Below are positions 2,130-61,444 of a stretch of 61,444 nucleotides of DNA, piece by piece; within the stretch, counting starts at the first letter, position 1; every line of letters starts with the position of its first letter. This stretch comes from Acidimicrobiia bacterium (GTDB taxonomy: Bacteria; Actinomycetota; Acidimicrobiia; Spongiisociales; JAHEDJ01). The translations under genes and the position numbers were made by a program. The notes below the pieces were generated by a model that made no database searches, was not told the DNA's origin, and was given only the letters and a program-made list of their open reading frames with translations. The stretch lies in NCBI GenBank assembly GCA_029210695.1, contig JARGFH010000002.1, forward strand, positions 62,001 to 123,444, in the 5' to 3' direction.

Positions 2130-3256
2130 ACTGGAACCTCCTGTTCGAGAACCACTTCGGTGCCGGCACCCGGACTCGAGCGGATTTGGGCGGTGCCGCC
2201 GTGCCTTTCCATCCGACGCACGATCGACTCGACGATGCCCTTGCGGTCTTTCGGAACAGTCTCCGGATCGAATCCCGTTCCCCGGTCCCGAACGAAGATG
2301 CTGGCAAAACCGTCGCAGACCTCCGCATAGACAGAGAACTCTTCGACACCGGCATGTCGTGCCGCGTTGATGCTCGCCTCGCGGCCGGCTTTCACGAGCG
2401 CCTCGAGGCTGGGACTCAGAGCGGCGTCTCCGACCACGACCGTCTGAATGAGAACGCGGAACAACTCCTCAACTTCCGCCGTCATCGTGCGCACTGCGGC
2501 CGAGAAGCTGTCATCTGGCCTGGCACCGTCGCCGAACAGCCAGGCACGCAGCTCCCGCTCCTGCCGGCGGGCCAGCGCAGCAGTCTGTTCGGGCTTGTCT
2601 GTGCGCTGGATCATCGCCAATGTCTGAAGGACCGAGTCGTGCAGATGGGCGGCCATATCGGCTCGCTCCTCGGCGCGTGCTCGCGAGGCGCGCTCTTCGA
2701 CGAGGGCATCCTCGGCGTCCCTCCGCAGCCGATCGCTTCGTCGAATCACCCCGACCGCCCAGCCGGCCAGGACTCCACCAAACAGGTAGATGAGCACGGC
2801 GGCCGAATCATTTGTGGGATCCGACCCGGTTGACTGGATGAGCCTGAGAATGGTGGCCGCCGACAGGGCTGTCGCAGTTGCCAGTCCCCCGGCGACGGCG
2901 AAGGTATAGACGCCCATGAACACGGATGACATCGGGTAGCCGCCGTAGAAGGTCGCCGTCATGCCGGCCACGTCACTGCTGAAGAGCGACCAGACCGTAA
3001 CGCCCACGTCGGCGACCAGCCACCACCAACTTCGCAATACGCCGGGGCGGCTCCCGTGCAACCATCCGGTGAGGAGAGCCCATGCCCCAACTCCCAGCAT
3101 CGTGGCAACAACAACGCTCGGTCTGTCCGGTCGAGCCGAACCCGCCAGTGTGATGACTCCGAGAACGGCGAGCCATGCCGCTCCGACGATCCGATAGCCG
3201 ACCACCACGCGTCCGAGCACACGCTCGATCTCAGGAGTGCCGGCGGTGTCGCTCAT
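2126..3256 (-). CDS. Membrane sensor histidine kinase (HisKA_3-like)
   Basis: Multiple TM segments; AAHLHDSVLQTL H-box; NAARH, DRGTGF and GAGT ATPase motifs; coupled to the response regulator. Confidence 0.92.
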   Translation of the reverse strand: MSDTAGTPEIERVLGRVVVGYRIVGAAWLAVLGVITLAGSARPDRPSVVVATMLGVGAWALLTGWLHGSRPGVLRSWWWLVADVGVTVWSLFSSDVAGMTATFYGGYPMSSVFMGVYTFAVAGGLATATALSAATILRLIQSTGSDPTNDSAAVLIYLFGGVLAGWAVGVIRRSDRLRRDAEDALVEERASRARAEERADMAAHLHDSVLQTLAMIQRTDKPEQTAALARRQERELRAWLFGDGARPDDSFSAAVRTMTAEVEELFRVLIQTVVVGDAALSPSLEALVKAGREASINAARHAGVEEFSVYAEVCDGFASIFVRDRGTGFDPETVPKDRKGIVESIVRRMERHGGTAQIRSSPGAGTEVVLEQEVPV

Positions 3257-3328
3257 GCGGCGCAGGCTAACCGCCGCCCCGAGCGCGGACGCGCCTTGAC
3301 GGAGCGGGTATTGACTAGCGTTGTGCCG

Positions 3329-3601
3329 ATGACCGAGCGACTATCCCCCGCTGCCATCATCTTCGCCGTCGTCGGAGCGGGCATTCACCTCGTTATGGGT
3401 TTCTTCGTCGCGTTCAGCGGGCTGATCGCCCCGCCCTGGGGAGTTGCAGTACTGGCAGCCACCTGGTTGGGCTTGACCGTGTGGGGAATACGACGGTGGC
3501 GGCAGGGACCGAGGATCACGATGGGTCTACCGCTGTTGATGGTGGCGTTCTGGTTCGTGTTCCTCACCTTCGGCGATCTGGTGCTGGGCTGGACCGCCTG
3601 A
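3329..3601 (+). CDS. Small integral membrane protein
   Basis: ATG 3329 preceded by TAGCGT -10 (leaderless); three hydrophobic segments. Confidence 0.65.
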   Translation: MTERLSPAAIIFAVVGAGIHLVMGFFVAFSGLIAPPWGVAVLAATWLGLTVWGIRRWRQGPRITMGLPLLMVAFWFVFLTFGDLVLGWTA

Positions 3602-3610
3602 CCTACTGTG

Positions 3611-3720
3611 TTCTCCGCAATGCCGTGGTGCAAAAACAGTACACAGCATTGCCGAGAAAACCCGCGGAGCTTTCTCCGCAATGCTGTGGTGCGAAAACAG
3701 GTAACAGCATTGCCGAGAAA
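3611..3720. repeat. Two tandem ~50-bp palindromic REP-like units
   Basis: TTCTCCGCAATGC(C/T)GT-loop-ACAGCATTGCCGAGAA at 3611-3658 and 3671-3720, between convergent genes. Confidence 0.75.
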
Positions 3721-3727
3721 ACCCGGG

Positions 3728-5581
3728 TCAGGCTCGTTCTACGACCTCATACAGCGTCGTCCGCTGCTGTGGTGAACGACCGGCCGCTCGAATCATCGTC
3801 TCGAACTCACCGGTCGTCATCTCCTCACCATGCGAGGCCCCGGCCGATCGGGTGATGATCTCCCCCATCAGCGTTCCACCGGCGTCGTTGGCCCCGGCGT
3901 TCAGCAACCGGCCGACTCCGTCGGTCCCGAGCTTGACCCACGACGCCTGGATGTTGGGGATCAGCCCATCGAAGGCGATCCGCGCCACCGAATGAATCAG
4001 GACCACCTCGTCCCACGTTGGTCCCGGCCGAGCGCGGCCGCGCAACCAGATCGGCGACCCCATATGCACGAACGGCAGCGGCACGAACTCGGTGAACCCA
4101 CCCGTCCTACGCTGGATCTCCCGGATCACCTCGTAGTGGTTGGCCCAGGAGTCCGGACCGTCGATGTGCCCGAACATGACCGTCGCCGTCGAGCGCAGAC
4201 CGATCTCGTGGGCGGTCAGCATCACTTCTGCCCATTCGGCTGTCCGGATCTTGTCCGGGCAGAGATGCTCTCGCACGCGGTCGTCGAGGATCTCTGCCGC
4301 CGTGCCGGGCAGCGTCCCGAGCCCGGCTTCGCGCAGTCGCACCAGATAGTCCCTCAGGTCGACTCCGAGCGTCTCTGCTCCCTGCCAGACCTCGAGCGGC
4401 GTGAAACCGTGGATATGCATGGCCGGCATCCGCGCTTTGATGGCTTCCACCACCTCGACGTAGAAATCGCCGGTGTAGTCCGGGTGAATCCCGCCCTGTA
4501 GTGTCACCTCGGTAGCTCCGCGCTCCGTCGCCAACTCGGCGAGGTGAACAATCTGCTCCACCGACATCAGGTACGGATCGCCGCGCAGGCTCAAGCTGCG
4601 CGGACCTTTCGAGAAAGCACAAAAACCGCAACGGAAGTAGCAGAGATTCGTGTAGTTGATGTTGCGATTGACGACATAAGTCACGGTGTCGCCCACCGCC
4701 CGGCTACGAAGCGCGTCGGCCACGCCGGCGACGGCATCAACCTGACCGCTCCTGGCCCGAAACAGCAACTCGATTTCGTCGCGCGAGGGAGCGCTACCCT
4801 CGAGCGACCGTTCGAGGATCGGCCGCAAAGGACCGGCATCCTCCAATCCCTCCGCCGCAGCCGAACCGACCCAGGCGGCGTCCGGCCACTGCGCGGAGAA
4901 CCGGTTGTCGGGCGACGGTACACCTTCGCCCTTCCCGGGTGACCAGGAGTAACGCGGCCGGATGGCACCCCGCCCGTCGACCTGGTTCAGCCAGGCAGTC
5001 AATACCTCTTCCGGCAGTTGCGTGCGTGCCCCCTCGAGTTCGGTGTCGATCGGGAAGGCCCCGCGCTCGATGACTTCTCCCACAGCATCTCGTAGCTCAC
5101 CGATCCGCTCCGCACCCCAGTCCCGCAAGAGGAGATCGGTGGCGCCGTCGGCGATCGCTTTGACTGCTTCCTCGACGCTGTCGACAAACACAGAGACCGC
5201 AGCCTCGATTCCCGGCAACCCGGTCAGGGAGGCGGCGGCACGAACCGCCGAACGCGCGGTCCTCAGAAACGCCGCTCGGCTCCTGGCGAGACCGTCGAGC
5301 ACCTCGGATCGAGATCCTTCGTCGAGAACCGTGATGCGCCACCCGGCTACCCCGAGTTCCGCCAGGCGAATCGCCTGACCGGGTGTGGCGATCCAAGCGG
5401 CCGGGGCTCCGTCGGTCCCTCCGGCCTCGACGGGAAGGATTCCTCCTTCGAGGCAGGCCGCCCGATCATCATCGCGGATAGCCTTGATTTCCAGTGTTGT
5501 GGTGCCTTCGCGCCGCCGGGTGCCGGCAAACAAACCGGAGACCGACTCGGCAGGGCGAACCCGACAGAATGAGATGGTCAT
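3728..5581 (-). CDS. cofH: FO synthase subunit CofH with long N-terminal extension
   Basis: VTYVVNRNINYTNLCYFRCGFCAF radical-SAM motif; LQGGIHP, PGTAAEILDD, NIQASWVKLG, NDAGGTLMGE. Confidence 0.9.
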   Translation of the reverse strand: MTISFCRVRPAESVSGLFAGTRRREGTTTLEIKAIRDDDRAACLEGGILPVEAGGTDGAPAAWIATPGQAIRLAELGVAGWRITVLDEGSRSEVLDGLARSRAAFLRTARSAVRAAASLTGLPGIEAAVSVFVDSVEEAVKAIADGATDLLLRDWGAERIGELRDAVGEVIERGAFPIDTELEGARTQLPEEVLTAWLNQVDGRGAIRPRYSWSPGKGEGVPSPDNRFSAQWPDAAWVGSAAAEGLEDAGPLRPILERSLEGSAPSRDEIELLFRARSGQVDAVAGVADALRSRAVGDTVTYVVNRNINYTNLCYFRCGFCAFSKGPRSLSLRGDPYLMSVEQIVHLAELATERGATEVTLQGGIHPDYTGDFYVEVVEAIKARMPAMHIHGFTPLEVWQGAETLGVDLRDYLVRLREAGLGTLPGTAAEILDDRVREHLCPDKIRTAEWAEVMLTAHEIGLRSTATVMFGHIDGPDSWANHYEVIREIQRRTGGFTEFVPLPFVHMGSPIWLRGRARPGPTWDEVVLIHSVARIAFDGLIPNIQASWVKLGTDGVGRLLNAGANDAGGTLMGEIITRSAGASHGEEMTTGEFETMIRAAGRSPQQRTTLYEVVERA

Positions 5582-6714
5582 GACCCGACTCCCTCGTGAA
5601 TCGCCGCGTAGCCTGCCTCGTCGGACGCATTAGCAACCTTGGCCAGCATGGCAGGATCGAGCCACTCATCGTCGATGAACTCCGGATAGACCGGTAGCCG
5701 GGGACTGAGCTCGAACCCTGCTCTCTCCGTGCGACGCCTCAACTCTGCGAGGTGCGGCCACGGTTGTTCGGGATTGACCCAGTCGATCGTCAACGGCGAA
5801 ACACCACCCCAGTCGTTGATTCCGGCAGCCAGATACGTTTCGTAGTTCTCCGTCAGATTCGGGGGTACTTGCACATTCATTTCCGGACCAAACAACCAAC
5901 GGGTGACGGCGACCACCCTGGCGAAGTAGGCGGGAACAGGCTCCGGGCTGCCCTTCATGCGGGTGTCTGCCTTCGCCCGAAAGTTTTGGACGATGATCTC
6001 TTGAATGTGACCGAATCGCCGGTGCAGATGATCGAGAGCGACGAGCGAGTCGACGATTTCGCGATTCGTCTCACCGATTCCCACCAGAATTCCCGACGTG
6101 AAAGGAACCCTGGCCATACCGGCTGATTCGATCGTCGCCACTCGCCGGGCCGGATCCTTGTCCGGGCAGTCGAAGTGCGGCATGCCCGGCTCCAATAGCC
6201 GGGACGAGATGTTCTCGAGCATGAGACCCATCGAAGGGTTGGATGGACGAAGCTTGCGGATCGCAGCTTCATCCATGAGGCCCGGGTTGGCATGAGGGAA
6301 CAATGCCGTGTCGGACGCAACGAGTTCGGTCATCTCGCGCACGTAGTCAAGTGTCGAATCGAGCCCGCGCCCATCGAGAAACTGCCGGGCCTGATTCCAG
6401 CGGCCCTCCGGTCGGTCGCCGAGGGTGAACAACGCTTCTGTGCAACCGTGTCGTTCGCCGGCCATCGCCACTGCCAGCACTTCGTCCGGTTCGAGATACT
6501 CGCCGCCGGCTCCTGGTGGTTTGGCAAACGTGCAGTAGGTGCAGCGATCCCTGCACAGCGTCGTCAAGGGTATGAATACCTTGCGGCTGTAGGTGATGGT
6601 CTGGCCATGCCCTTCGTCTCGGAGCCGGGCGGCTTCGATGTACAAGGGCGCAGCGTCAACGGATCCGTCGAGATAGCCAGTGGCGAGCTCCGGATCGAAA
6701 GGAGGATGAGGCAT
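5578..6714 (-). CDS. cofG: FO synthase subunit CofG
   Basis: TYSRKVFIPLTTLCRDRCTYCTF; PFTSGILVGIGE; QVPPNL; GINDWGGVSPLT.DWVNPE.PWP. Confidence 0.93.
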   Translation of the reverse strand: MPHPPFDPELATGYLDGSVDAAPLYIEAARLRDEGHGQTITYSRKVFIPLTTLCRDRCTYCTFAKPPGAGGEYLEPDEVLAVAMAGERHGCTEALFTLGDRPEGRWNQARQFLDGRGLDSTLDYVREMTELVASDTALFPHANPGLMDEAAIRKLRPSNPSMGLMLENISSRLLEPGMPHFDCPDKDPARRVATIESAGMARVPFTSGILVGIGETNREIVDSLVALDHLHRRFGHIQEIIVQNFRAKADTRMKGSPEPVPAYFARVVAVTRWLFGPEMNVQVPPNLTENYETYLAAGINDWGGVSPLTIDWVNPEQPWPHLAELRRRTERAGFELSPRLPVYPEFIDDEWLDPAMLAKVANASDEAGYAAIHEGVGS

Positions 6715-6797
6715 GAAGCGCAACGCTAGCGGGCAGATTCAGCAATGGGCGCCTCGTCGCCTCCGACCGTGCTCGGGCGGCGGCTACCCTCACCTCA

Positions 6798-46270: not shown

Positions 46271-46777
46271 CTACCGGCTGGTTGGGGGATTTGAAACAAC
46301 TTCTGCGGACTTGGTCACATCCGCCACCACCGCGCCGGTCGCCTCTATGAGATCGATGCTTCGGAGATGAATCGCAAGGCCTGAGACACCACCGCCGACC
46401 GAAACCTCGGCCTTCGACTCGAGCGAGCTGTCGGCAACAACCGGCCAGTTGCCGGCGGCGCCGAACGGGGTGATAGTGCCTCTCCGGTATCCGGTGGCAG
46501 TGAAGGCCTCATCAGCGTCGGGGAGAGACAGGCGCGACACACCCCGGCATTTCCGCAGTTTTGTCCAGTCGATGACCCGGTCACCGGGAACCAGGATCAA
46601 AAGATACCGGCCCTCCGACTCACGCACGACGATCGTCTTGATGAGCTGGTTCAGATCGATATTTCGGGCGGCGGCGGCTTCGCCTACAGAAGATACCTCC
46701 CCGAACGGGACCAACCGGTGCTCGACGCCGGAGGAGGCCACGGCAATGGTGGCGGGCGTTTCGGGGAGGGCCGTCAA
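46271..46777 (-). CDS. YbaK/EbsC aminoacyl-tRNA deacylase
   Basis: LIKTIVV, TGYRRGTITPFG, VSVGGG. Confidence 0.88.
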   Translation of the reverse strand: MTALPETPATIAVASSGVEHRLVPFGEVSSVGEAAAARNIDLNQLIKTIVVRESEGRYLLILVPGDRVIDWTKLRKCRGVSRLSLPDADEAFTATGYRRGTITPFGAAGNWPVVADSSLESKAEVSVGGGVSGLAIHLRSIDLIEATGAVVADVTKSAEVVSNPPTSR

Positions 46778-47380
46778 TCAGATCTCGTCGAGAAGCTTCT
46801 GCTTCTTGGCGGCGAACTCCTCATCCGTCAGGACACCGTCGCGATGGAGGCGAGCGAGTGACTCGAGTTGCCCCGCGGCTCCCCCCTGGTTGCCCCCTTC
46901 GAGCGCAACCGTTCGCTTCTCTCTCAGTTGGTAGATCTGCGATTGGACATCCTCAGGGCGGGGAATATCGGTGAAACGGCTCTGCCCCTGCTCACCGGCG
47001 GACTCGATCAAGAGATCGCCCGAATGCACCAGCCGCTCCAGCACCGACTGCGAGAACGCAACGTCGTTGATGACCTCGAGCGGAATCTCCTTGCCTCGAC
47101 GAGCCAGTACCCCCGACCGAACGATGAGGCGTTCGTTGGTGACGATGTATCGGGTGAACCACCAATCGAGGTAGCGCGGAACGGCGGTGATGAGCCAGAC
47201 GAGGGCAACGACGGCCAGCGAGATCCACATGGCGCCTTCGTCTAGGAGCGCGGTGACGGCAACCAGCGCGGCGATGGCGACGATCGTGATGGCGGTGGGA
47301 ACCATGATTCTCTGCCAATGCGGGCGGAACTCGAGTTGGACGGCTTCGCCGGGACTGAGGAGACGTTCTGGGTAGGGCAT
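46778..47380 (-). CDS. Membrane PH (bPH_2) domain protein with SHOCT tail
   Basis: RPHW, two TM, YIVTNERLI, GDLLIESAGE; LHRDGVLTDEEF..KK..LL; leaderless TACCAT-N6-ATG. Confidence 0.85.
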   Translation of the reverse strand: MPYPERLLSPGEAVQLEFRPHWQRIMVPTAITIVAIAALVAVTALLDEGAMWISLAVVALVWLITAVPRYLDWWFTRYIVTNERLIVRSGVLARRGKEIPLEVINDVAFSQSVLERLVHSGDLLIESAGEQGQSRFTDIPRPEDVQSQIYQLREKRTVALEGGNQGGAAGQLESLARLHRDGVLTDEEFAAKKQKLLDEI

Positions 47381-47432
47381 GAGCTTATGGTACGCGAGTC
47401 ACGGCTCGCGCGAGTCGCCGGTTGCATCTCAA

Positions 47433-47841
47433 GACGCGGAAAACCCCGAGAAAGCTCCGACCGAAGTCGTTACCCTCTCGGGGTTCCCGAACCCCGCTCC
47501 GGTTCGAGTCCCGAAGGACAAGATCCGAGGCGAGTCCCGAAGTAGCGTTTCCACTACCCCGGACCCACAGCCTTTCAGCCCCGGGCTCGTTCTCCACCAA
47601 TCCCGAAAGACTGGTATCGAACACGGCCCCTCGTTTCCAAGAGACCTGGTATCCCCCGAAGGAGAAACCAACACTCCGGCCGGACGCCCGATCGACCCGA
47701 AGGTCTCCCGGGACGGACAACCCTTACGAGCTGCCTCTCCCTTTCAGGAGCCACCGAAGTGGTTGTCCCATCCAAAGCCGCTCAGTTTCCCAAATGGCCC
47801 CGTCCGGGACAATGCCGTCTCAGAGTTTCCTCCGAACCGGC
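47433..47841 (-). ncRNA. Putative ~409-nt tetraloop-rich structured RNA, copy A
   Basis: 13 consecutive hairpins capped by GAAA (6), GUAA (1) and UUCG (6), with G-U pairs that work only on the minus strand; own promoter; long 3' hairpin. Confidence 0.8.
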
Positions 47842-47848
47842 AGGGAGG

Positions 47849-47923
47849 AACATATCGGCTACCCCCACCCAACGCAAGGCAGAAACCAACCCAGATTTCG
47901 CGACCCAAACATAAAAGTCGCGA
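47849..47923 (-). promoter_or_regulatory. Promoter of RNA A with upstream TCGCGA pair
   Basis: TTGCGT(47877-72)-N17-TATGTT(47854-49); TCGCGA at 47898-903 and 47918-923. Confidence 0.72.
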
Positions 47924-48008
47924 GTTACGAGTCGCGGGTCGCCAGTTACGGGTCGCGAGTTCGCGAGTCCACGAGTCGCGGGTCCCGAGTTACGAGTCGC
48001 TAGTCGCG
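47916..48008. repeat. Degenerate heptamer tract (AGTCGCG/AGTTACG), ~13 units
   Basis: Spacer between RNA genes; only 3 units at 48504-48524. Confidence 0.85.
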
Positions 48009-48020
48009 GGTACGCCCCAG

Positions 48021-48429
48021 GACGCGGAAAACCCCGAGAAAGCTCCGACCGAAGTCGTTACCCTCTCGGGGTTCCCGAACCCCGCTCCGGTTCGAGTCCC
48101 GAAGGACAAGATCCGAGGCGAGTCCCGAAGTAGCGTTTCCACTACCCCGGACCCACAGCCTTTCAGCCCCGGGCTCGTTCTCCACCAATCCCGAAAGACT
48201 GGTATCGAACACGGCCCCTCGTTTCCAAGAGACCTGGTATCCCCCGAAGGAGAAACCAACACTCCGGCCGGACGCCCGATCGACCCGAAGGTCTCCCGGG
48301 ACGGACAACCCTTACGAGCTGCCTCTCCCTTTCAGGAGCCACCGAAGTGGTTGTCCCATCCAAAGCCGCTCAGTTTCCCAAATGGCCCCGTCCGGGACAA
48401 TGCCGTCTCAGAGTTTCCTCCGAACCGGC
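48021..48429 (-). ncRNA. Putative tetraloop-rich structured RNA, copy B (identical to A)
   Basis: Identical sequence; promoter TTGCGT(48465-60)-N17-TATGTT(48442-37). Confidence 0.8.
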
Positions 48430-48536
48430 AGGGAGGAACATATCGGCTACCCCCACCCAACGCAAGGCAGAAACCAACCCAGATTTCGCGACCCAAACAT
48501 AAAAGTCGCGAGTTACGAGTCGCGGATACGCCCCAG

Positions 48537-48721
48537 GACGCGGAAAACCCCGAGAAAGCTCCGACCGAAGTCGTTACCCTCTCGGGGTTCCCGATCCCGG
48601 GAACTCCTTGCCCGAAAGCTCGGTCTTCCCGAAGACTCCCTCGACCGGCGTTTCCACCGATTCCGGTCCGAAGAGCCCTCTCGACCTCTTCAGTCCGCTT
48701 CGCAGTTTCCTGCGATGCGGT
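48537..48721 (-). ncRNA. Putative ~185-nt short family member, RNA C
   Basis: 5 hairpins (GAAA, GAGA, GAAA, UUCG, UUCG); last 58 nt identical to A/B; 5' hairpin analogous to that of A/B. Confidence 0.75.
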
Positions 48722-48728
48722 AAAGATG

Positions 48729-48803
48729 AAGGTAAGCGCTCCTGCGCCGTTCGTCAAGGCACAGAGCTCACAAATTTTCGCGACCTGTTCATAGTTTTCG
48801 CGA
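48729..48803 (-). promoter_or_regulatory. Promoter of RNA C with upstream TCGCGA pair
   Basis: TTGACG(48757-52)-N17-TACCTT(48734-29); TCGCGA at 48778-83 and 48798-803, same offsets as in A/B. Confidence 0.72.
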
Positions 48804-48819
48804 CTCGGAATCTCATAAG

Positions 48820-48841
48820 TGTCATTCGAGTGTCGTATAGT
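48820..48841 (+). promoter_or_regulatory. PafBC/RecA-NDp-type promoter
   Basis: TGTCAT-N10-TATAGT, 6 nt before the ATG at 48848. Confidence 0.7.
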
Positions 48842-48847
48842 CGGGGC

Positions 48848-49648
48848 ATGCCGTTGGAAACGCTGTCTCCAAGTCGGGCGAGCGACTACAAGCAATGCCC
48901 GCAACTCTTCAAGTTCCGGGCAATAGATCGCATACCCGAACCGGTCACGATCTACCAGGCCCGGGGAACCACCGCGCACCTCGCTCTGCAGGAGCTGTAC
49001 GACCTCTCACCGGAGGAGCGCACACCGGAAGCCCTCTACGACCTCTTCCGCAAGGCGTGGACGGAGCTGCGCACGACAGAAGAGTATGCCGACCTGTTTA
49101 GTTCTGATGACGAGGAGCGCATGTGGGGTGTTGAGAGCCTTGCACTCCTGGCCAACTACTTCACCGTCGAGGACCCCGTTGAGGTGAGTCCTCGCGATCG
49201 CGAGCTGGACATGCTCGAGGATTTGGGGGGCATCACCATTCGCGGCATCCTCGACCGAATCGACGAGCTTCCCGGCGGCGAACTGGTCATCACCGATTAC
49301 AAGACCGGCAAGGCACCGCCCGAACGATATGCACTCCCGGCGTTCTTCGCCCTCAAGATCTATGCGCTCTTGATCAGGCACAAGACGGGCCGGACTCCCG
49401 TTGAACTCCGCCTGTTGTACCTCAACGGACCGACCCTCTATCGCCTGCCCGTCGGCGACGCGCATCTGAATGGTATGGACCGCCAGCTCCGGGCACTGTG
49501 GGCGGCGATCGACAAGGCCATCGCCGGCGATAACTTCCCGCCGCGCCCGGGGCAACTGTGCAACTGGTGTTCCTACCAGGATCGGTGCCCCGCCTTCGCC
49601 GACAACGATGCGGAAGGCGATGACCAGACCTTGGCGAGCACCGCATGA
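48848..49648 (+). CDS. RecB-family PD-(D/E)XK nuclease with four-Cys (Fe-S) motif
   Basis: LSPSRASDYKQCP, GTTAH..L, RGILDRID, ITDYKTGK, LCNWCSYQDRCP. Confidence 0.88.
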   Translation: MPLETLSPSRASDYKQCPQLFKFRAIDRIPEPVTIYQARGTTAHLALQELYDLSPEERTPEALYDLFRKAWTELRTTEEYADLFSSDDEERMWGVESLALLANYFTVEDPVEVSPRDRELDMLEDLGGITIRGILDRIDELPGGELVITDYKTGKAPPERYALPAFFALKIYALLIRHKTGRTPVELRLLYLNGPTLYRLPVGDAHLNGMDRQLRALWAAIDKAIAGDNFPPRPGQLCNWCSYQDRCPAFADNDAEGDDQTLASTA

Positions 49649-49836
49649 CGTCTTCACGTGATGAGATGGCGGCGCTTCGGGAGCGGTTCGGCACCGGCAT
49701 CGAGGTCATTTTCGATGGACCACCCGAGTCGTGTCCGACGTGCGATCACGCAATCGAGCAGCTCACCCTCGCTCTGGATCTTTCGGGCCTCGATCCCCTG
49801 ACGTGTGCAGGCTGTGGCGCGGTACTGGCCGCCTGA
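49645..49836 (+). CDS. 63-aa zinc-ribbon-like protein
   Basis: ATGA-coupled to the nuclease; CPTC...CAGC; ends LAA. Confidence 0.65.
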   Translation: MTSSRDEMAALRERFGTGIEVIFDGPPESCPTCDHAIEQLTLALDLSGLDPLTCAGCGAVLAA

Positions 49837-50037: not shown

Positions 50038-53034
50038 ATGACTGAATGGCGGATTGATCCAGACGACTGGCCCGACGCGATCGCGAACGTTGACGGACCG
50101 CAAATCGTGGTGGCCGGCCCGGGAACCGGTAAGACCGAGTTCCTCGTGCGCCGAGTGGTCGAACTCACAGAACGCCACCATCTTCCAGCCGATCGGATGG
50201 CCATCCTCACGTTCTCTCGAAGGGCTGCCTCGGACCTGAAGACGCGTGTGCAGGCGCGCCTCGATCGCTCGATCAGCGAGATCCCGGCCTCCACCTTCCA
50301 TTCCCTCGCCTTCCGGCTCCTCGAGCACCATGGACGGGAGCGACTCGGCTGGGGCGACATGCCTTCGCTCCTCACAGGCCCCGAGCAAGTCGCACTCGTG
50401 TCAGAACTGCTGTCGTCGGAAAACCAGCGGAGATGGCCGGTGCTCTTTCGACCCCTCCTCGGGTCGATGACCTTCGCCGAAGAGGTCGCCGACTTCATCA
50501 TGCGCAGTCGTGAGCATCTCCTCGATGATGCCGGGCTTCGTGCATTGGCCGCCGATCGGGCCGACTGGCGGGCGTTGCCCGATTTCCTGGTCCGGTACAC
50601 GACAGAACTCTCGAAACGAGCGCGCCTCGATTACGGATCTCTTCAATCCCTGGCCGTCGATCTCCTCGAGGATCCAGCCGTGCAGGAGGAAGTCGCAGAG
50701 CAGTTCCACTACGTGATCGTCGATGAGTACCAGGACACAACGGCCGCCCAATCCGAGATGCTCCTTCGGCTGACCGCCCACCATCGCAATCTCACCGTTG
50801 CGGCCGACCCCTATCAATCCGTGTACTCGTTTCGCGGCGCCGAATTGCACAACGTCGTCGAATTCCCGGATCGGTTCAAGGACCAGGACGGGACACCGGC
50901 CAGGCGACTGGTTCTCACCACATCATTTCGCGTGCCAGCTGAGATCCTGTCCGCCGCCGTTCGCCTGACCTCCGGCGGCGACCTACCCGGTGGGGCCGGG
51001 CCTGTCGTTCCGGCCCCACACAGCGGCCGGGTTGAAATTCGGAAGTTCCGGCAACAGTCGGAAGAAGCCGACTGGATCGCCTCTGAAGTCGAGCGACTAC
51101 ACATCGAAGAGCAACTCCCCATCGAACGTATGGCCGTGTTGGTCCGGTCGAAGCGCCACTTCCTGCCCGAGTTGTCGCGGGCACTCGAACGCCGCTCAAT
51201 CTCGCACGATCTCCCGGATGCCCGCCTGGTCGACCACCCGGCCATCCGCATCGTCTTTGATGTCGTGCAGGCGGCACACCCAGACGGGATGGGCAGCAGA
51301 CTGGACACAGATCGAGTCGTCAGACGACTCCTGTTGGGCCCCCTTGTCGGAGTACCGCTGAGCGTCGAGCGGGACGCCTATCGCCTTCGATTGCGCACGG
51401 ATGATTCGTGGCCCGCCATCCTCCGTTCCTCGGTACCGGGAACCGATGCGTTGGCGGACCTGATCGAGACACCGGACTGGGCAGTCACCGGGTCTGCTGC
51501 TCAGGGTTTCTGGACGCTGTGGAACTCACTCCCCCAGTTCGCCGGGTTGGTTCACGATCCCGACCGCGCTGATTTCCGATCAGCGTGGGCGGCCTTCACC
51601 CAGGTCCTCGGCCGCCAGGAGGCCCGCGACCCGAACCTGACGCTGGCGGAGTACGTCGCGCTGGCCGACCGAGAGGACTTCGAGGCCACTCCCCTCCTCC
51701 GCTATGCCGGGGATGCCTCCGAACGTCTGACACTCACCACCCTCCACCAGTCAAAAGGCCTAAGTTTCGACGTGGTCTTCATCGCGGACGCCGTGGAAGG
51801 AGTCATGCCCGACCTACGCCGTCAGCGGTCGATTCTTCAAACCCGCCTGCTCTCTCCCAATCATGATCCGGATCCGCATGCAGCCCGTCGATTCCGGCTC
51901 CAGGAAGAAATGCGACTCGCCTACACCGCTATGACCAGAGCAACCCGGCGAGTCGTGTGGACTGCCACGGACGCCGGAAGTGATGACCCGCAGCGGCGAC
52001 CGAGCCGATTCCTATCGGCCATCGGAGTCGAATCGTTCGACGTGGTACCGGAAAGAGGCTCCCCGATGGATGCTGAGGATCGGCTGCCGGTCACACCCGC
52101 CGAAGCCGAGGCCCACCTCAGGCGCATGATCGCCGACCCGGAGATTCCGGCCTCGCGTCGCCTCGCCGCGGTTACCACCCTCCACAACCGCCCGAACCCG
52201 GCCATTCGTTCCGTCGAGCAGTTCGCCCGCATGCGGGCACGAGGCTCGGATTCCGGGATCGTCGGACCGGACCTCAGATTGTCGCCCAGTCAGGCGGAGA
52301 GCTACGACATGTGCCCGAGGAAGTACGTCCTCGAACGGCGACTCAACGCGGCAGGTCAAGCTGGTCCATACGCGTCGTTCGGTCGCCTCATCCACGATGT
52401 TCTGGAAGACACGGAGCGGGAAGCCGTGGCCGGAGAGTCGACGCATGGGTCGATCGAACGCGCCCTCGAGCACCTAGAGCGGCACTTCGCTTCTGCTGAT
52501 TTCGGCCCGAAGGCTCGCCGGGAGGCGTGGCACAAGAGAGCGGAGCGGCTCCTGCGGAACATGTATGCCTCCTGGATCCGCCCGAACGCAGTACCGGTAC
52601 TCCTCGAACACGCGCTCGAGTCGACGATCGACGACATCCCCTGGCGAGGCAGGGCAGATCGCATCGAACGCACCGGCGATGATCGTCTGCGGATCGTCGA
52701 TTACAAGACGACCGCCTCGCCGAAGTCCGCCGCTGAAGCAGCGACCTCCATTCAACTGGCTTTCTACTTGTTGGCCGCCAGATCGGACGAGGCTGTGACC
52801 GCGTTCGGGGAGCCGGCGGAAGCTGAGTTCTGGTATCCGCTGGCCAAGCGCAAGCAGCAGTGGTCTGCACTGGATCCCGCCGAACTCGAGGTGGTAGTCG
52901 AGACGATGGCATCGATCGGACGGAACATCGCAAAGGAAGAGTGGGCACCGACCGTCGGAGTCACCTGCTCTCGATGCTCCGTGCGGATCTCCTGTCCCGA
53001 ATGGCCCGAAGGCCGGGAGTCGTTCGCCCGATGA
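50038..53034 (+). CDS. adnA: AdnA-like UvrD helicase-nuclease subunit
   Basis: AGPGTGKT, TFHSLA, VDEYQD, TLHQSKGL, EEMRLAYTAMTRA; C-terminal GRADRI..IVDYKT nuclease. Confidence 0.82.
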   Translation: MTEWRIDPDDWPDAIANVDGPQIVVAGPGTGKTEFLVRRVVELTERHHLPADRMAILTFSRRAASDLKTRVQARLDRSISEIPASTFHSLAFRLLEHHGRERLGWGDMPSLLTGPEQVALVSELLSSENQRRWPVLFRPLLGSMTFAEEVADFIMRSREHLLDDAGLRALAADRADWRALPDFLVRYTTELSKRARLDYGSLQSLAVDLLEDPAVQEEVAEQFHYVIVDEYQDTTAAQSEMLLRLTAHHRNLTVAADPYQSVYSFRGAELHNVVEFPDRFKDQDGTPARRLVLTTSFRVPAEILSAAVRLTSGGDLPGGAGPVVPAPHSGRVEIRKFRQQSEEADWIASEVERLHIEEQLPIERMAVLVRSKRHFLPELSRALERRSISHDLPDARLVDHPAIRIVFDVVQAAHPDGMGSRLDTDRVVRRLLLGPLVGVPLSVERDAYRLRLRTDDSWPAILRSSVPGTDALADLIETPDWAVTGSAAQGFWTLWNSLPQFAGLVHDPDRADFRSAWAAFTQVLGRQEARDPNLTLAEYVALADREDFEATPLLRYAGDASERLTLTTLHQSKGLSFDVVFIADAVEGVMPDLRRQRSILQTRLLSPNHDPDPHAARRFRLQEEMRLAYTAMTRATRRVVWTATDAGSDDPQRRPSRFLSAIGVESFDVVPERGSPMDAEDRLPVTPAEAEAHLRRMIADPEIPASRRLAAVTTLHNRPNPAIRSVEQFARMRARGSDSGIVGPDLRLSPSQAESYDMCPRKYVLERRLNAAGQAGPYASFGRLIHDVLEDTEREAVAGESTHGSIERALEHLERHFASADFGPKARREAWHKRAERLLRNMYASWIRPNAVPVLLEHALESTIDDIPWRGRADRIERTGDDRLRIVDYKTTASPKSAAEAATSIQLAFYLLAARSDEAVTAFGEPAEAEFWYPLAKRKQQWSALDPAELEVVVETMASIGRNIAKEEWAPTVGVTCSRCSVRISCPEWPEGRESFAR

Positions 53035-56000
53035 TTATCACCCCTACACCCGAACAACTCAGAATCATCGAATACCCGGTCCGGCCGCTGCGCATTGCCG
53101 CGGGAGCAGGCACCGGCAAGACCACGACTCTCGCCATGCGAATCGCACACCTCGTCGAAGCCGGAGCGGCCGAACCGGAACAAGTGCTGGGCATCACCTT
53201 CACGAACAAAGCGGCTCAGGAGCTGGGCGAACGCATCGCCGAGATGCTGGCGGACACCGTCGAACCGGGCCGCGATGTCGAAATCCACACCTATCACGGG
53301 TTCGCCGCCCTCATCCTCAGCGAGTTCGGGGTTCTCGCCGGCGTTGAACACGAAGCCAGGATCATCACACCGACGTTCGCCCGCCAATTGCTCTTCGACT
53401 CGATCAACGCAGGCATATACGAACACCTGGACATCACCTGGCGGGGAATTGTCGATAGGCCGGCGCGCCTCGCAGCCGACCTCGGTGACAACCTCGCAAC
53501 CGCGTCGGATTTGGTCGGGCTAACCGCCGGGCAGTCGGGGAAACCGTGGGATGAACGCGCCGAACTCGCCGATATCGTCGCACGGTTCGAAGCCGAGAAG
53601 CGTCGACTCGGCACGCTCGACTACGCAGACCTCGTCCGCTTGGCCCACAAGGTCGTCACGGATCATCCAGACGTGGCAAACCGGATTCGCGCCCGATACC
53701 GGATCGTGCTGCTCGATGAGTACCAGGACACCAACCCGGCCCAACGTGAGCTCCTCTTGAAGATCTTCGGTGACGGCTTCCCGGTGACGGCCGTCGGCGA
53801 TCCGGATCAAACGATCTACGAGTGGCGCGGTGCGTCGCTCGAGAACTTCGCAGCCTTCCCCCGCCACTTCTCAGGCGCCAACTCGCGGCCGGCCGAAACG
53901 TACTCGCTGACGATCAACCGCCGATCCGCCCGGGCCATCATCGAGTTTGCCAACTCCGTTCGTTCCAGAACCGGCGGAGACGTGGGCGCCGATCTGGAGG
54001 CCGCCGATACTGCGGGTGCCGGCCTCGTCGCAACACGGTGGACTCGCACCGCTGTCGACGAAGCCGAATTCATCGCAGATACGATGCTCGAGCTGAGGGA
54101 GGATGGGTACGAATGGCGGCAGATGGCGGCACTGTTCCGCAAGAACAAGGACATCACGCTCGTACAGCAGGCTCTCGAAGAGCGCAACGTACCCACTGAG
54201 GTTGCCAGCATCGGCGGCCTCCTCGCCATCCCGGAAATCGTCGATCTGCATGCCTGGCTGCGCATCCTCAACGATCCCGCCGACTCGCCCGCGCTGCTAC
54301 GCATCCTGCTCGGGAGTCGCTACCGACTCGGCTTCGCCGACGTACTCCCCCTCAGCCGATGGACCCGCGCCGGCGACGACCACGAGGACGCTCTGACTCC
54401 ATCGCTCCTGGAAGCGATCGACGTCCTCGATAACATCGACGTCCTCGATGACATCGACGGGCTGGCGCAGCCGGCCCGCCGGGCGTTGACCGCCTTCCGA
54501 TCCGAGTACCGCAACCTGCTTCAGGACGCCCAGGGATCCAGCCTGGTGGAACTCGCCAGGCGGATACTCCAGGTCACGGGGTCGTGGCAAGAAGTTGAGG
54601 CAATGCCCGATCATTCCCGGCTGTCGGTCCGGCTCAATCTCCATCGCTTTCTCGACCTTGCCGAGGAGTGGAGTCCCCTCGAAGGGAGACCTTCGCTACC
54701 CGCATTCCTCGACTACCTCGATGAGATGGTCGAAGGCAACGGCGACGAACTCACTCCCGCTCGCCTCAGCGGTCAAGATGCGGTTGCCCTCCTCACCGTG
54801 CACCGGGCGAAGGGACTGGAGTGGCCGATCGTGTTCATACCGGCAACGTACAAGTCCAATTTCCCGTCGGGGGTCAGGTCATACGAAGATCCCTTCGAGA
54901 AAGCCCACGTACTCCCCCACGAATTGCGCCTGGACCGCGACACCCTCCCATCGTTGTCAGCGTCCATGGACATCACCGCCAGACGGGCGGTCCTCAAGGA
55001 GCAATCGGATCGACAGGAGTGGAGAACCGCCTACGTCGCTGCCACCAGGGCCAAGGAGCGACTCTATCTGTCTGGAGCGCATTGGTACGGGTCACCGGAG
55101 CCGCGCAAGCAGGCGGTCAAACCGGGAGAACTATTCGAGCTTGCGACTTCTTGCGCGGAAGACCTCGGAAACGACGAAGCCGGGGACCGGCCCGAACTGC
55201 TCAGATATGAACCTGTGGGCGACGGCGCACCCGATCCAGTCTTCCCCGATGGATGGGACGCCGCCCTGCGGGCCATGCGCGAGGATCGCGGGTGGGCAGA
55301 GCGACGAGCGACCCAACTGGGGGTCGCCGGCGCATACCATGAGCGGGTGGACCACTACCAGGACAAGCTGTTCCGGATTCCCGAGACGCCGCCACCGGTT
55401 GGACCGGAGCCCCTCCTCACATCGGTCACCGGATTGGTCACGTACGCAATCTGCCCGCAAAGGTTCTATTGGTCTGAAGTTGATCGCTTGCCGCGAAGGC
55501 CCTCGTCGGCCGCCAGACGGGGTGTCGAGATACATCGCCGTATCGAACTTCACAATCGAGGTGAGGTGCCGCTGGACGACTTCACAGAGGATGCTTACGA
55601 CATTGGTCCGTCGGATGCGGGATCCGCCGGCACCCGGCCTTTCGAGGCATTTCTCGAATCCAGGTTCGCCGCCACGGCCCCACTGCTCATCGAAGCCCCA
55701 TTCGATCTCCGAGTCGGCTCGTCGACGATCCGGGGAAGGATAGATGCCGTTTACGCCCCGGAAGCGGGCCACTGGGAGATCGTCGACTTCAAGTCGGGGG
55801 CACCATCCAAACTCGCCGCCACGGCGGTGCAGCTCGAAGCGTATGCCCTGGCCGCTACCGAAGTGCCGTTCACCCTGCAGCGACCGAGCACGATCGACGT
55901 GACGTTTGCCTATCTCGGTGGTGGGCTTCAGACGGTGAGCGAACGGGCGGACGAGGAGTGGATTCACAACGCCAGAGACCATGTGACGACGCTGCTCGAC

Positions 56001-56108
56001 AACATCACAGACGAGGTTTGGGATGCGTCGCCCTCGTCGGCTTGCCGGCATTGCGATTTCGCCCGCTTCTGTGACGCCGGCACCCTCTGGTTGAAAGATC
56101 ACCAGTAA
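53031..56108 (+). CDS. adnB: AdnB-like UvrD helicase-nuclease subunit
   Basis: AGAGTGKT, LDEYQDT, VGDPDQTIYEWRGA, TVHRAKGLEW; GRIDAV..IVDFKS nuclease; ATGA-coupled. Confidence 0.85.
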   Translation: MIITPTPEQLRIIEYPVRPLRIAAGAGTGKTTTLAMRIAHLVEAGAAEPEQVLGITFTNKAAQELGERIAEMLADTVEPGRDVEIHTYHGFAALILSEFGVLAGVEHEARIITPTFARQLLFDSINAGIYEHLDITWRGIVDRPARLAADLGDNLATASDLVGLTAGQSGKPWDERAELADIVARFEAEKRRLGTLDYADLVRLAHKVVTDHPDVANRIRARYRIVLLDEYQDTNPAQRELLLKIFGDGFPVTAVGDPDQTIYEWRGASLENFAAFPRHFSGANSRPAETYSLTINRRSARAIIEFANSVRSRTGGDVGADLEAADTAGAGLVATRWTRTAVDEAEFIADTMLELREDGYEWRQMAALFRKNKDITLVQQALEERNVPTEVASIGGLLAIPEIVDLHAWLRILNDPADSPALLRILLGSRYRLGFADVLPLSRWTRAGDDHEDALTPSLLEAIDVLDNIDVLDDIDGLAQPARRALTAFRSEYRNLLQDAQGSSLVELARRILQVTGSWQEVEAMPDHSRLSVRLNLHRFLDLAEEWSPLEGRPSLPAFLDYLDEMVEGNGDELTPARLSGQDAVALLTVHRAKGLEWPIVFIPATYKSNFPSGVRSYEDPFEKAHVLPHELRLDRDTLPSLSASMDITARRAVLKEQSDRQEWRTAYVAATRAKERLYLSGAHWYGSPEPRKQAVKPGELFELATSCAEDLGNDEAGDRPELLRYEPVGDGAPDPVFPDGWDAALRAMREDRGWAERRATQLGVAGAYHERVDHYQDKLFRIPETPPPVGPEPLLTSVTGLVTYAICPQRFYWSEVDRLPRRPSSAARRGVEIHRRIELHNRGEVPLDDFTEDAYDIGPSDAGSAGTRPFEAFLESRFAATAPLLIEAPFDLRVGSSTIRGRIDAVYAPEAGHWEIVDFKSGAPSKLAATAVQLEAYALAATEVPFTLQRPSTIDVTFAYLGGGLQTVSERADEEWIHNARDHVTTLLDNITDEVWDASPSSACRHCDFARFCDAGTLWLKDHQ

Positions 56109-60863: not shown

Positions 60864-61369
60864 GGCTCATCGGATTTCAGCGGGGTGTGATGGTGGCGAG
60901 TAGATTCCAGTTGGGTTTTCCGGCGTAGAGGAGGGCTCTGATCCGGTAGTTGCGGAACCGGCGGAACCCGAACCCGATCCGTTTTATCCGTTTGATGAGA
61001 TTGTTGACCGCTTCGGTGGGCCCGTTCGACACCCGTGCCTGATGCCAGGCGACGATGTGGTCGAGCCACCGTCGGAGGGTGCGGCCGAGGGAGTTGACTT
61101 CGGGGGGACATGATTCGTCTTGGAGGTCTTCTGCGAGTTGGGTGACGAACTCGGTGGCCAGGTCGGGTTCGTCGATCTGATAGATGGAGCGGATGACTTC
61201 TTTGGCATGCCACGCCATCCGCACTTCACCACGGGGGTCGCCGGCTCGTAGCAGGCCCAGCAGCTTGGCTTCGCCTCGGTCGTCGAGACGTTCATGGGCT
61301 TTGGTCAACAGTCTCCGTGCCCGATAGAGCGGGTCGTCTTTTCTGCCTCGATGACCGACCGTCTCGTTC
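60864..61369 (-). mobile_element. ISL3-family element, right end with 3' transposase fragment (stop at 60877)
   Basis: GGCTCATCG terminus; NETVGHRGRKDDPLYR...SNGPTEAVNNLIKRIKRIGFGFRRFRNYRIRALL. Confidence 0.85.
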
Positions 61370-61444
61370 CCCTCTGTGTCAACGTTTCGTGAGACGGGTC
61401 GTGTAGGTGTATCACTGTGTTGAGAGGGCGGGATGGGAGAATCC
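61370..61444 (-). mobile_element. End of a probable second IS inserted in the ISL3 transposase
   Basis: Transposase similarity breaks at 61369/70; CCCTCTGTGTCAAC IR-like end; another ORF (GFSHPALSTQ*) stops at 61412. Confidence 0.45.

Follow-up and report, generated by a model that had tools for sequence, protein, structure and literature searches.

The 61,444-nt stretch of DNA analysed here (hereafter the window) comes from an Acidimicrobiia bacterium (NCBI GenBank assembly GCA_029210695.1, contig JARGFH010000002.1, positions 62,001 to 123,444) and is numbered from its first letter. A 1.45-kb gap in the window, between a gene for a membrane protein with bPH_2 and SHOCT domains and a gene for a PD-(D/E)XK nuclease, contains three noncoding RNA (ncRNA) genes, all on the minus strand. 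Two of these encode a long array of tetraloop-capped hairpins, and the third encodes a short paralog that we call RNA A. The RNAs are structured on the minus strand, conserved, non-coding, syntenic in relatives and absent from Rfam, and they very probably represent a genuine new family of free-standing ncRNA genes. An earlier note on this DNA had described one large structured RNA in two identical copies. The long copies are indeed identical, over 503 nt that include the promoter region (47433-47935 versus 48021-48523, with a period of 588 nt), but the locus holds three RNA genes rather than two, the third being the short paralog at 48537-48722. Besides this paralog, the TCGCGA-type boxes upstream of the genes, the synteny of the locus and the species-variable number of hairpin modules were absent from that note.

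The long RNA has a fold of unusual stability on one strand. The minus strand of the first copy (47841..47433) has a minimum free energy (MFE) of -229.5 kcal/mol, against a mean of -178.1 kcal/mol for its shuffles (z = -7.55), and none of 100 shuffles folded as well; the plus strand of the same stretch reaches -142.5 kcal/mol (z = -2.33), which was equalled by 2 of 100 shuffles. This is the comparison of both strands with shuffled controls that the earlier note had proposed, and its view that selection acts on an RNA rather than on a DNA palindrome is upheld by the two z scores, by the G-U content and by covariation in four homologs. The structure is strand-restricted because about 24% of its pairs (36 of 150) are G-U, so that the opposite strand could form only 75.3% of them. 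Across the homologs of the long RNA, G-U accounts for 34-39 of 149-150 pairs (23-26%), and 74-76% of the pairs are compatible with the opposite strand.

All the hairpins quoted in the earlier note can be found in the minus-strand sequence of 47433-48429. Its count of 13 hairpins is the union of two alternative folds with 12 in each, the MFE structure lacking CCAC-UUCG-GUGG and the alignment consensus lacking the local CUCCU-GAAA-GGGAG hairpin, whereas its statement that all loops are GNRA or UUCG stands. In the MFE structure 12 of 12 hairpin loops belong to these two classes; 100 dinucleotide shuffles yielded a mean of 0.27 such loops per 7.66 loops, and a maximum of 2. The raw number of UUCG tetranucleotides in the long RNA (10) was equalled by at least one of 200 shuffles; the distinguishing feature is that UUCG sits in loops, rather than how often it occurs. 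The RNA is heavily paired (300 of 409 nt), mostly in local hairpins, the longest pairing span in the single-sequence fold being about 90 nt. End-to-end contact in the alignment consensus amounts to 2 bp only, which are unsupported, and neither the predicted fold nor the alignment consensus of the long RNA contains a pseudoknot or a network of multi-helix junctions. The 5' domain is the most conserved part of the molecule, and it has conserved internal loops with tandem G/A.

The plus strand across the RNA genes is open for 471 codons (47379-48794), and gene callers elsewhere have predicted proteins across the homologous regions, so that a protein of 471 amino acids (aa) is one alternative to an RNA; another is a selfish element, a palindromic DNA repeat of REP or MITE type. 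Both are almost certainly wrong. The 471-aa open reading frame (ORF) has no Pfam match, and its GC content by codon position is flat (0.63/0.56/0.62, versus approximately 0.69/0.47/0.75 for real genes in the window). Substitutions in it are spread over the three codon positions without a third-position excess, with counts of 18/16/23 and 22/11/19 relative to the two more distant relatives described below, L002 and L003, where the adjacent bPH_2 gene shows the strong third-position bias of a coding sequence (22/14/91 and 30/16/86, respectively). The relatives break the frame with 1- and 2-nt indels and a 77-nt insertion, and the predicted pseudo-proteins match the window in shifting reading frames along their length, which is itself evidence against coding. 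The plus-strand frame is probably open only because A-containing triplets that give stop codons on the complement are few in the RNA strand. On the RNA strand itself, a small ORF with an AUG in the 5' domain was also considered and rejected, the start codon not being conserved in L003. The dispersed copies expected of a mobile repeat were found neither by blastn nor by covariance model elsewhere in the 61-kb window or, outside this locus, in 28 kb of the relatives; the copies occur only at this locus, and G-U pairing makes the structure specific to one strand.

The plus-strand frame provided the handle by which relatives were found, in the form of a pseudo-protein made by plus-strand translation of one repeat unit. 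It matched two proteins in a word-indexed search and five clusters among 1.84 billion representative proteins, and a scan of genome contigs with a five-row pseudo-protein alignment led to three confirmed loci among 88 pattern matches, a lower bound since the scan relied on only two peptide patterns. The three loci (L001, L002 and L003) are all contigs of metagenome-assembled genomes, labelled Actinomycetes, Acidimicrobiia and "bacterium". By blastn, the long RNA is present once in L001, once in L002 and as two identical copies in L003, and RNA A is present in L002 and L003. In L001, the closest relative, only 110 nt lie between the long RNA and the upstream end of the contig (6412-6521), which places the RNA A region beyond the contig; an assembly break at this point would be expected if tandem identical long copies existed there too.

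The consensus structure of the four distinct long-RNA sequences comprises 150 pairs in 17 helices, of which helix 17 is the terminal hairpin. Standard pairs occupy 98.3% of its 599 cells, compared with 34-57% after the 3' partners had been shifted by 1-3 columns. Eight pairs have changed on both sides with pairing kept, a number that none of 500 shuffles reached (mean 2.5) and that compares with 1-4 in the slid controls, and dozens of pairs show a one-sided change by way of G-U. A single G-U pair, replaced by A-C in L003, was counted as unpaired. Nucleotide identity between the window and L002 or L003 is 72-79% for the flanking coding genes, 89-90% for RNA A and 77-87% for the long RNA, and between the window and L001 it is 90-92% for coding genes and 96% for the long RNA; the RNAs thus evolve more slowly than the genes around them.

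The length of the array is not fixed. L002 and L003 have an extra 55 nt and 77 nt, respectively, at one and the same site, immediately after the hairpin GGUCUCUUG-GAAA-CGAGGGGCC, and these inserts consist of 2-4 hairpins with GNRA loops that resemble the hairpin just before them. The resemblance indicates that the number of hairpins changes by local duplication. The elongated RNAs keep the loop classes of the window RNA, with GNRA or UUCG in 12 of 13 loops of the best fold in L002 and in 14 of 14 in L003.

RNA A is a structured RNA in its own right, with a predicted energy of -102.6 kcal/mol (z = -5.9) on the minus strand. It has in common with the long RNA a 5' GNRA hairpin architecture, a GAAA hairpin, a UUCG domain and the terminal hairpin, and its first hairpin follows the design of that of the long RNA with a different stem sequence. 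The homologs in L002 and L003 are 89-90% identical to it, and the consensus of the three sequences has 65 pairs, two of which show double changes. A covariance model, R1, built from the three RNA A sequences gives an alignment of 78.5 bits with the 3' 177 nt of the long RNA, with the 5' hairpin matched weakly; the score comes chiefly from the shared terminal hairpin and the GAAA-capped hairpin. This alignment makes the long RNA resemble an RNA A in which the second hairpin has been swapped for approximately 230-300 nt of hairpins. Model R1 detected no further paralog in the 61-kb window or in the loci, all matches outside the locus having E > 3. A likeness of the second hairpin of RNA A, which has a GAGA loop, to the sarcin-ricin loop was considered and dropped, as the bulged-G motif is short by one nucleotide.

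The long terminal hairpin that the earlier note had seen at the end of the array is present, and occurs three times in the window as repeat family D2, once at the end of each RNA gene. It has 22 pairs followed by UUUU only and is invariant in 7 of 7 RNAs. Within a genome, RNA A and the long RNA have nearly identical terminal hairpins, and between genomes these carry lineage-specific changes (compared for L003 5308-5369 versus 6694-6750 and for the window 47433-47494 versus 48537-48598), a pattern suggestive of gene conversion among the paralogs. Both the window and L003 contain a pair of identical long copies, and between genomes the copies differ by about 13-16% over aligned stretches. The duplicated unit spans one terminal hairpin to the next, and unequal recombination between near-identical terminal hairpins is the likely route of gene duplication. 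The junction of the tandem duplication is marked by the heptad repeat of 13 units between the long copies, the core of which is that of the TCGCGA-type boxes. Diverged repeats with a 7-nt period also follow terminal hairpins in L002 (2985-3010 and ~2380-2420) and L003 (5990-6000 and 6680-6695).

Each of the three genes is preceded by a putative promoter of its own. The earlier note had placed a -35/N17/-10 promoter 7 nt before the first stem of each long copy; these elements are in the sequence as TTGCGT-N17-TATGTT, with 7 nt separating the -10 element from the first stem base of copy 1, and are conserved in the relatives. The promoter-like site of RNA A, TTGACG-N17-TACCTT, likewise stops 7 nt short of its first stem. 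In each gene a stem-loop begins at the predicted 5' end. When the seven upstream regions (four of long RNAs and three of RNA A) are aligned, all have a conserved -35 element (TTGCGT or TTGAC-), a 17-18-nt spacer of variable sequence and a -10 element TAnnTT; the promoter type of copy 1 is conserved in 4 of 4 long-RNA promoters, and the positions of the RNA A promoter are kept in L002 and L003. Farther upstream lies a GTCGCGAAA box near -59 that is invariant in all seven promoters, with a second, weaker copy about 20 nt beyond it. All occurrences of the 9-mer (4 of 4 in the window, where 1.03 would be expected by chance, and 7 of 7 in the loci) are at the RNA promoters. Those of RNA A lie between the divergent promoters of RNA A and the nuclease gene. 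Such a distribution suggests that a dedicated DNA-binding regulator may act on the TCGCGA-type boxes; a search of the literature for the box sequence turned up only unrelated papers, judged from the listing. The palindromic hexamer TCGCGA itself is under-represented in the window (35 seen versus 52 expected), and 8 of the 35 are located in 47898-48803. The coordinates of all these features and of the neighbouring genes are collected in Table 1.

Table 1. Features of the ncRNA locus and its neighbours, in window coordinates.
Feature	Position	Strand	Remarks
Long hairpin-array RNA, copy 1	47433..47841	minus	409 nt; 12-13 tetraloop-capped hairpins; 3' end is the shared terminal hairpin and UUUU
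Long hairpin-array RNA, copy 2	48021..48429	minus	Sequence same as copy 1
Short paralog, RNA A	48537..48722	minus	About 186 nt; fold, homologs, consensus structure and covariance model R1
Terminal hairpin, copy 1	47437..47489	minus	53 nt, UUCG-capped, UUUU after or within; putative intrinsic terminator
Terminal hairpin, other occurrences	48025-48077 and 48541-48593		Repeat family D2
Putative promoter, copy 1	47849..47877	minus	-35 TTGCGT 47877-47872; 17-nt spacer; -10 TATGTT 47854-47849
Putative promoter, copy 2	48437-48465	minus	Identical to that of copy 1
Putative promoter, RNA A	48729..48757	minus	-35 TTGACG 48757-48752; 17-nt spacer; -10 TACCTT 48734-48729
GTCGCGAAA box, copy 1	47896..47904	minus	Centre at about -59 from first stem base
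GTCGCGAAA box, copy 2	48484-48492	minus	
Two GTCGCGAAA boxes, RNA A	48776..48804	minus	20 nt apart; about -59 and -79 from RNA A
Heptad tandem repeat	47916..48008		About 13 units; plus-strand consensus AGTCGCG; between copy 2 terminator and copy 1 promoter; family D3
bPH_2 and SHOCT membrane-protein gene	46778..47380	minus	Downstream neighbour; Pfam
PD-(D/E)XK nuclease gene	48848..49648	plus	Divergent neighbour; Pfam
Two UvrD-helicase/PD-(D/E)XK proteins, AdnA/AdnB-like	50038-56108		After the nuclease gene; Pfam

The order of genes is conserved in all four genomes: the bPH_2-SHOCT gene, the long RNA or RNAs and RNA A on one strand, then the PD-(D/E)XK nuclease gene and the two AdnA/AdnB-like genes on the opposite one. 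Both flanks were identified by Pfam in the window, L002 and L003, and the bPH_2 side alone by nucleotide identity in L001. The long RNA is always directly upstream of the bPH_2-SHOCT gene and on the same strand, as would be expected of a cis-acting leader or attenuator of that gene, an explanation that we regard as highly improbable: a terminator-like hairpin ends each RNA, two or three full promoter-to-terminator units follow one another in series, and the bPH_2 gene keeps a -10-like hexamer of its own 6 nt 5' of its ATG (TACCAT in the window, 47381-47392, minus strand; TACTAT in L002 and L003), which suggests that the gene may have its own leaderless start. In L002, and in this genome only, a gene for a major facilitator superfamily (MFS) transporter and a divergent gene for an AraC/cupin regulator lie between the long RNA and RNA A (3111-5054), and RNA A runs into a convergent gene. 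The insertion and the convergent gene show that RNA A and the long RNA are separate units and not a common leader.

The nuclease gene on the other side seems to be leaderless too, with TATAGT 6 nt before its ATG (48830-48850, plus strand); the region upstream of this -10 element may resemble the RecA-NDp/PafBC-type DNA-damage promoter of Actinobacteria.

To our knowledge, no regulatory RNA has been described for the Acidimicrobiia. A published description of an RNA such as this one was not found in open-licence PubMed Central (PMC) or bioRxiv, judged from listings and abstracts. The earlier note had been unable to assign the RNA to RNase P, tmRNA, SRP, 6S/Ms1 or rRNA, and Rfam 15 yields no family either: its 4227 models, which include RNase P, tmRNA, SRP, 6S, OLE, ROOL, GOLLD and raiA, had no match at gathering score in the whole window, only two chance-level matches (E of 4.6 and 6.7) at a permissive threshold in 46800-49200, and no match at E<=1 in the three related loci. 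The window contains neither tRNA nor tmRNA, and 47380-48850 had no blastn match ("distant" mode) in plasmids and phages.

Among known RNAs of comparable standing, 6S and Ms1 bind RNA polymerase, and an Acidimicrobiia counterpart of either is one candidate identity. Like these, the RNAs described here are the products of stand-alone structured RNA genes; the putative promoters look strong, and the lineage is actinobacterial, as for Ms1. At about 300 nt, Ms1 is comparable in size to the long form but not to the short one. The string "Acidimicrobi" occurs 0 times in the main text of a survey of Ms1 (PMC9130861), so the class may not have been covered by it. The shape is unlike theirs, however: the fold is not a rod with a central bubble, and a helix closing the 5' and 3' ends has no support. 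Nor is there an Rfam match. The flanking genes used for Ms1 in PMC9130861 are a HAD-IB hydrolase or "inhibition of morphological differentiation" gene paired with an oxidoreductase gene, which does not fit the bPH_2-SHOCT and PD-(D/E)XK nuclease neighbours here. Ms1 was rejected on this synteny and on shape, and a counterpart of 6S or Ms1 that binds RNA polymerase is quite unlikely.

The large RNAs OLE, ROOL, GOLLD and raiA offer a different parallel, in that they exceed 400 nt, have many GNRA loops and are of narrow or patchy distribution. Homo-oligomers have been reported for large bacterial RNAs (PMC12286853), and the GNRA loops of the long RNA could similarly dock into helices of their own copy or of others, giving an assembly made of RNA alone, as in the homo-oligomers of OLE, ROOL and GOLLD. 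Each long RNA has 6-9 GNRA loops, most of them invariant across the four homologs, and the tandem-G/A internal loops of the 5' domain are conserved, all of which would suit such docking. We nevertheless consider tertiary or quaternary assembly unlikely. These known RNAs have multi-junction folds with pseudoknots, whereas the RNA here is a string of mostly local hairpins, and it has neither their Rfam signature nor an association with tRNA or phage. A species-variable hairpin number is a poor fit to a defined cage, and two of the GNRA loops change their second base between species. The likeness to GOLLD and ROOL that the earlier note had suggested is weak.

CsrB/CsrC and RsmX/Y/Z are protein-sequestering RNAs of Gammaproteobacteria. 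They are free-standing, terminator-ended genes that occur as paralogs of different length, with arrays of similar stem-loops that vary in number between species and a conserved upstream box. The combination of a short and a long paralog, hairpin arrays, a putative terminator and a palindrome-like upstream box found here parallels the layout of CsrB/CsrC and RsmY/Z. The differences are that the loops are GNRA or UUCG rather than GGA-containing, that the lineage is actinobacterial and that there is no Rfam match.

We propose, with a probability of roughly 35-40%, that the RNAs function as a multivalent protein-binding sponge or scaffold. In our model, each RNA gene would be transcribed on its own from a housekeeping-type promoter, under the control of a regulator that binds the TCGCGA boxes. 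The transcripts would be long-lived because both ends sit in hairpins. They would act in trans, the repeated hairpins serving as multiple sites for a hairpin- or double-stranded-RNA-binding protein. Valency could be tuned by local duplication of hairpins, and dose by tandem duplication of the whole gene through the repeated terminator.

Several observations weigh against this proposal. The GGA-in-loop motif of the CsrA sponges is absent, and G-G-A occurs only across the closing pair of four G-GAAA-C hairpins. The hairpins have no strict common sequence motif beyond the tetraloop classes, and some GNRA loops differ between species (GAAA, GUAA or GCAA); such variation fits selection for stable folding as well as it fits protein recognition. 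We did not find a candidate partner protein, the neighbours being the membrane bPH_2-SHOCT protein and DNA-repair nucleases, and elsewhere in the window Pfam identified no RNA-related proteins except RNase III, ribosomal protein S16 and YceD. No CsrA-like gene is present among the 54 window ORFs scanned with Pfam, which represent 61 kb of the genome. The ends, abundance and stability of the transcripts are predictions. A sigma-70 consensus scan called no site at the RNA promoters, and we retain the promoter assignment because the elements are conserved across seven promoters; similarly, the terminator consensus scan did not call the shared terminal hairpin, whose UUUU falls below the scan rule of five T in eight, and the terminator assignment is retained because the hairpin is conserved. 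Lastly, the covariation comes from four long and three short sequences, too few for significance of the R-scape type, and is supportive but not decisive.

The same hairpins could have a humbler role, merely stabilizing RNAs that act in trans by base pairing or that serve as decoys for RNases. Tandem paralogous small RNA (sRNA) genes with terminators are common in bacteria, and hairpins at the 5' and 3' ends suggest protection from exonucleases. We give this explanation little credence, as the extent of pairing and the closed tetraloops leave little conserved single-stranded seed, and 410-490 nt is an unusual length for an sRNA of the seed type.

The rest of the window is ordinary chromosome, with rpsP, ppc, upp, SMC, fpg, RNase III, plsX, recG, ddl and Mur ligase genes. 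Three other features are recorded for completeness. A gene with a YbaK/aminoacyl-tRNA-editing domain (46271-46777, minus strand) comes after bPH_2 in both the window and L001, and blastn detected no match to it at any point of the L002 and L003 loci. A 63-aa ORF (49645-49836, plus strand), located between the nuclease and first helicase-nuclease genes, has two Cys pairs, appears zinc-ribbon-like and has no Pfam match. A fragment of an ISL3-family transposase gene (60877-61443, minus strand) lies at the end of the window, distant from the RNA locus.

What the locus provides is an orphan RNA family of narrow known distribution, with clear gene boundaries, two paralog lengths, a species-variable hairpin count and a specific promoter box, in a widespread and mostly uncultured class of bacteria for which the family offers direct experimental handles. 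A more ambitious reading, and one that we hold to be unlikely, is that this hairpin-array class forms the RNA component of a hitherto undescribed system of the Acidimicrobiia, either globally regulatory or structural. The RNAs would be switched on by a dedicated regulator of the TCGCGA boxes, and would either titrate a protein recognizing tetraloop hairpins or assemble through GNRA loops into a higher-order particle. If this were true, the RNAs would play the part of Csr/Rsm or 6S/Ms1 in a lineage without a known counterpart, based on a different recognition principle. Should neither a partner protein nor an assembly be found, the family would stand as a well-defined orphan ncRNA of narrow distribution; should either be found, it would add multivalent regulatory or scaffold RNAs of a new class.

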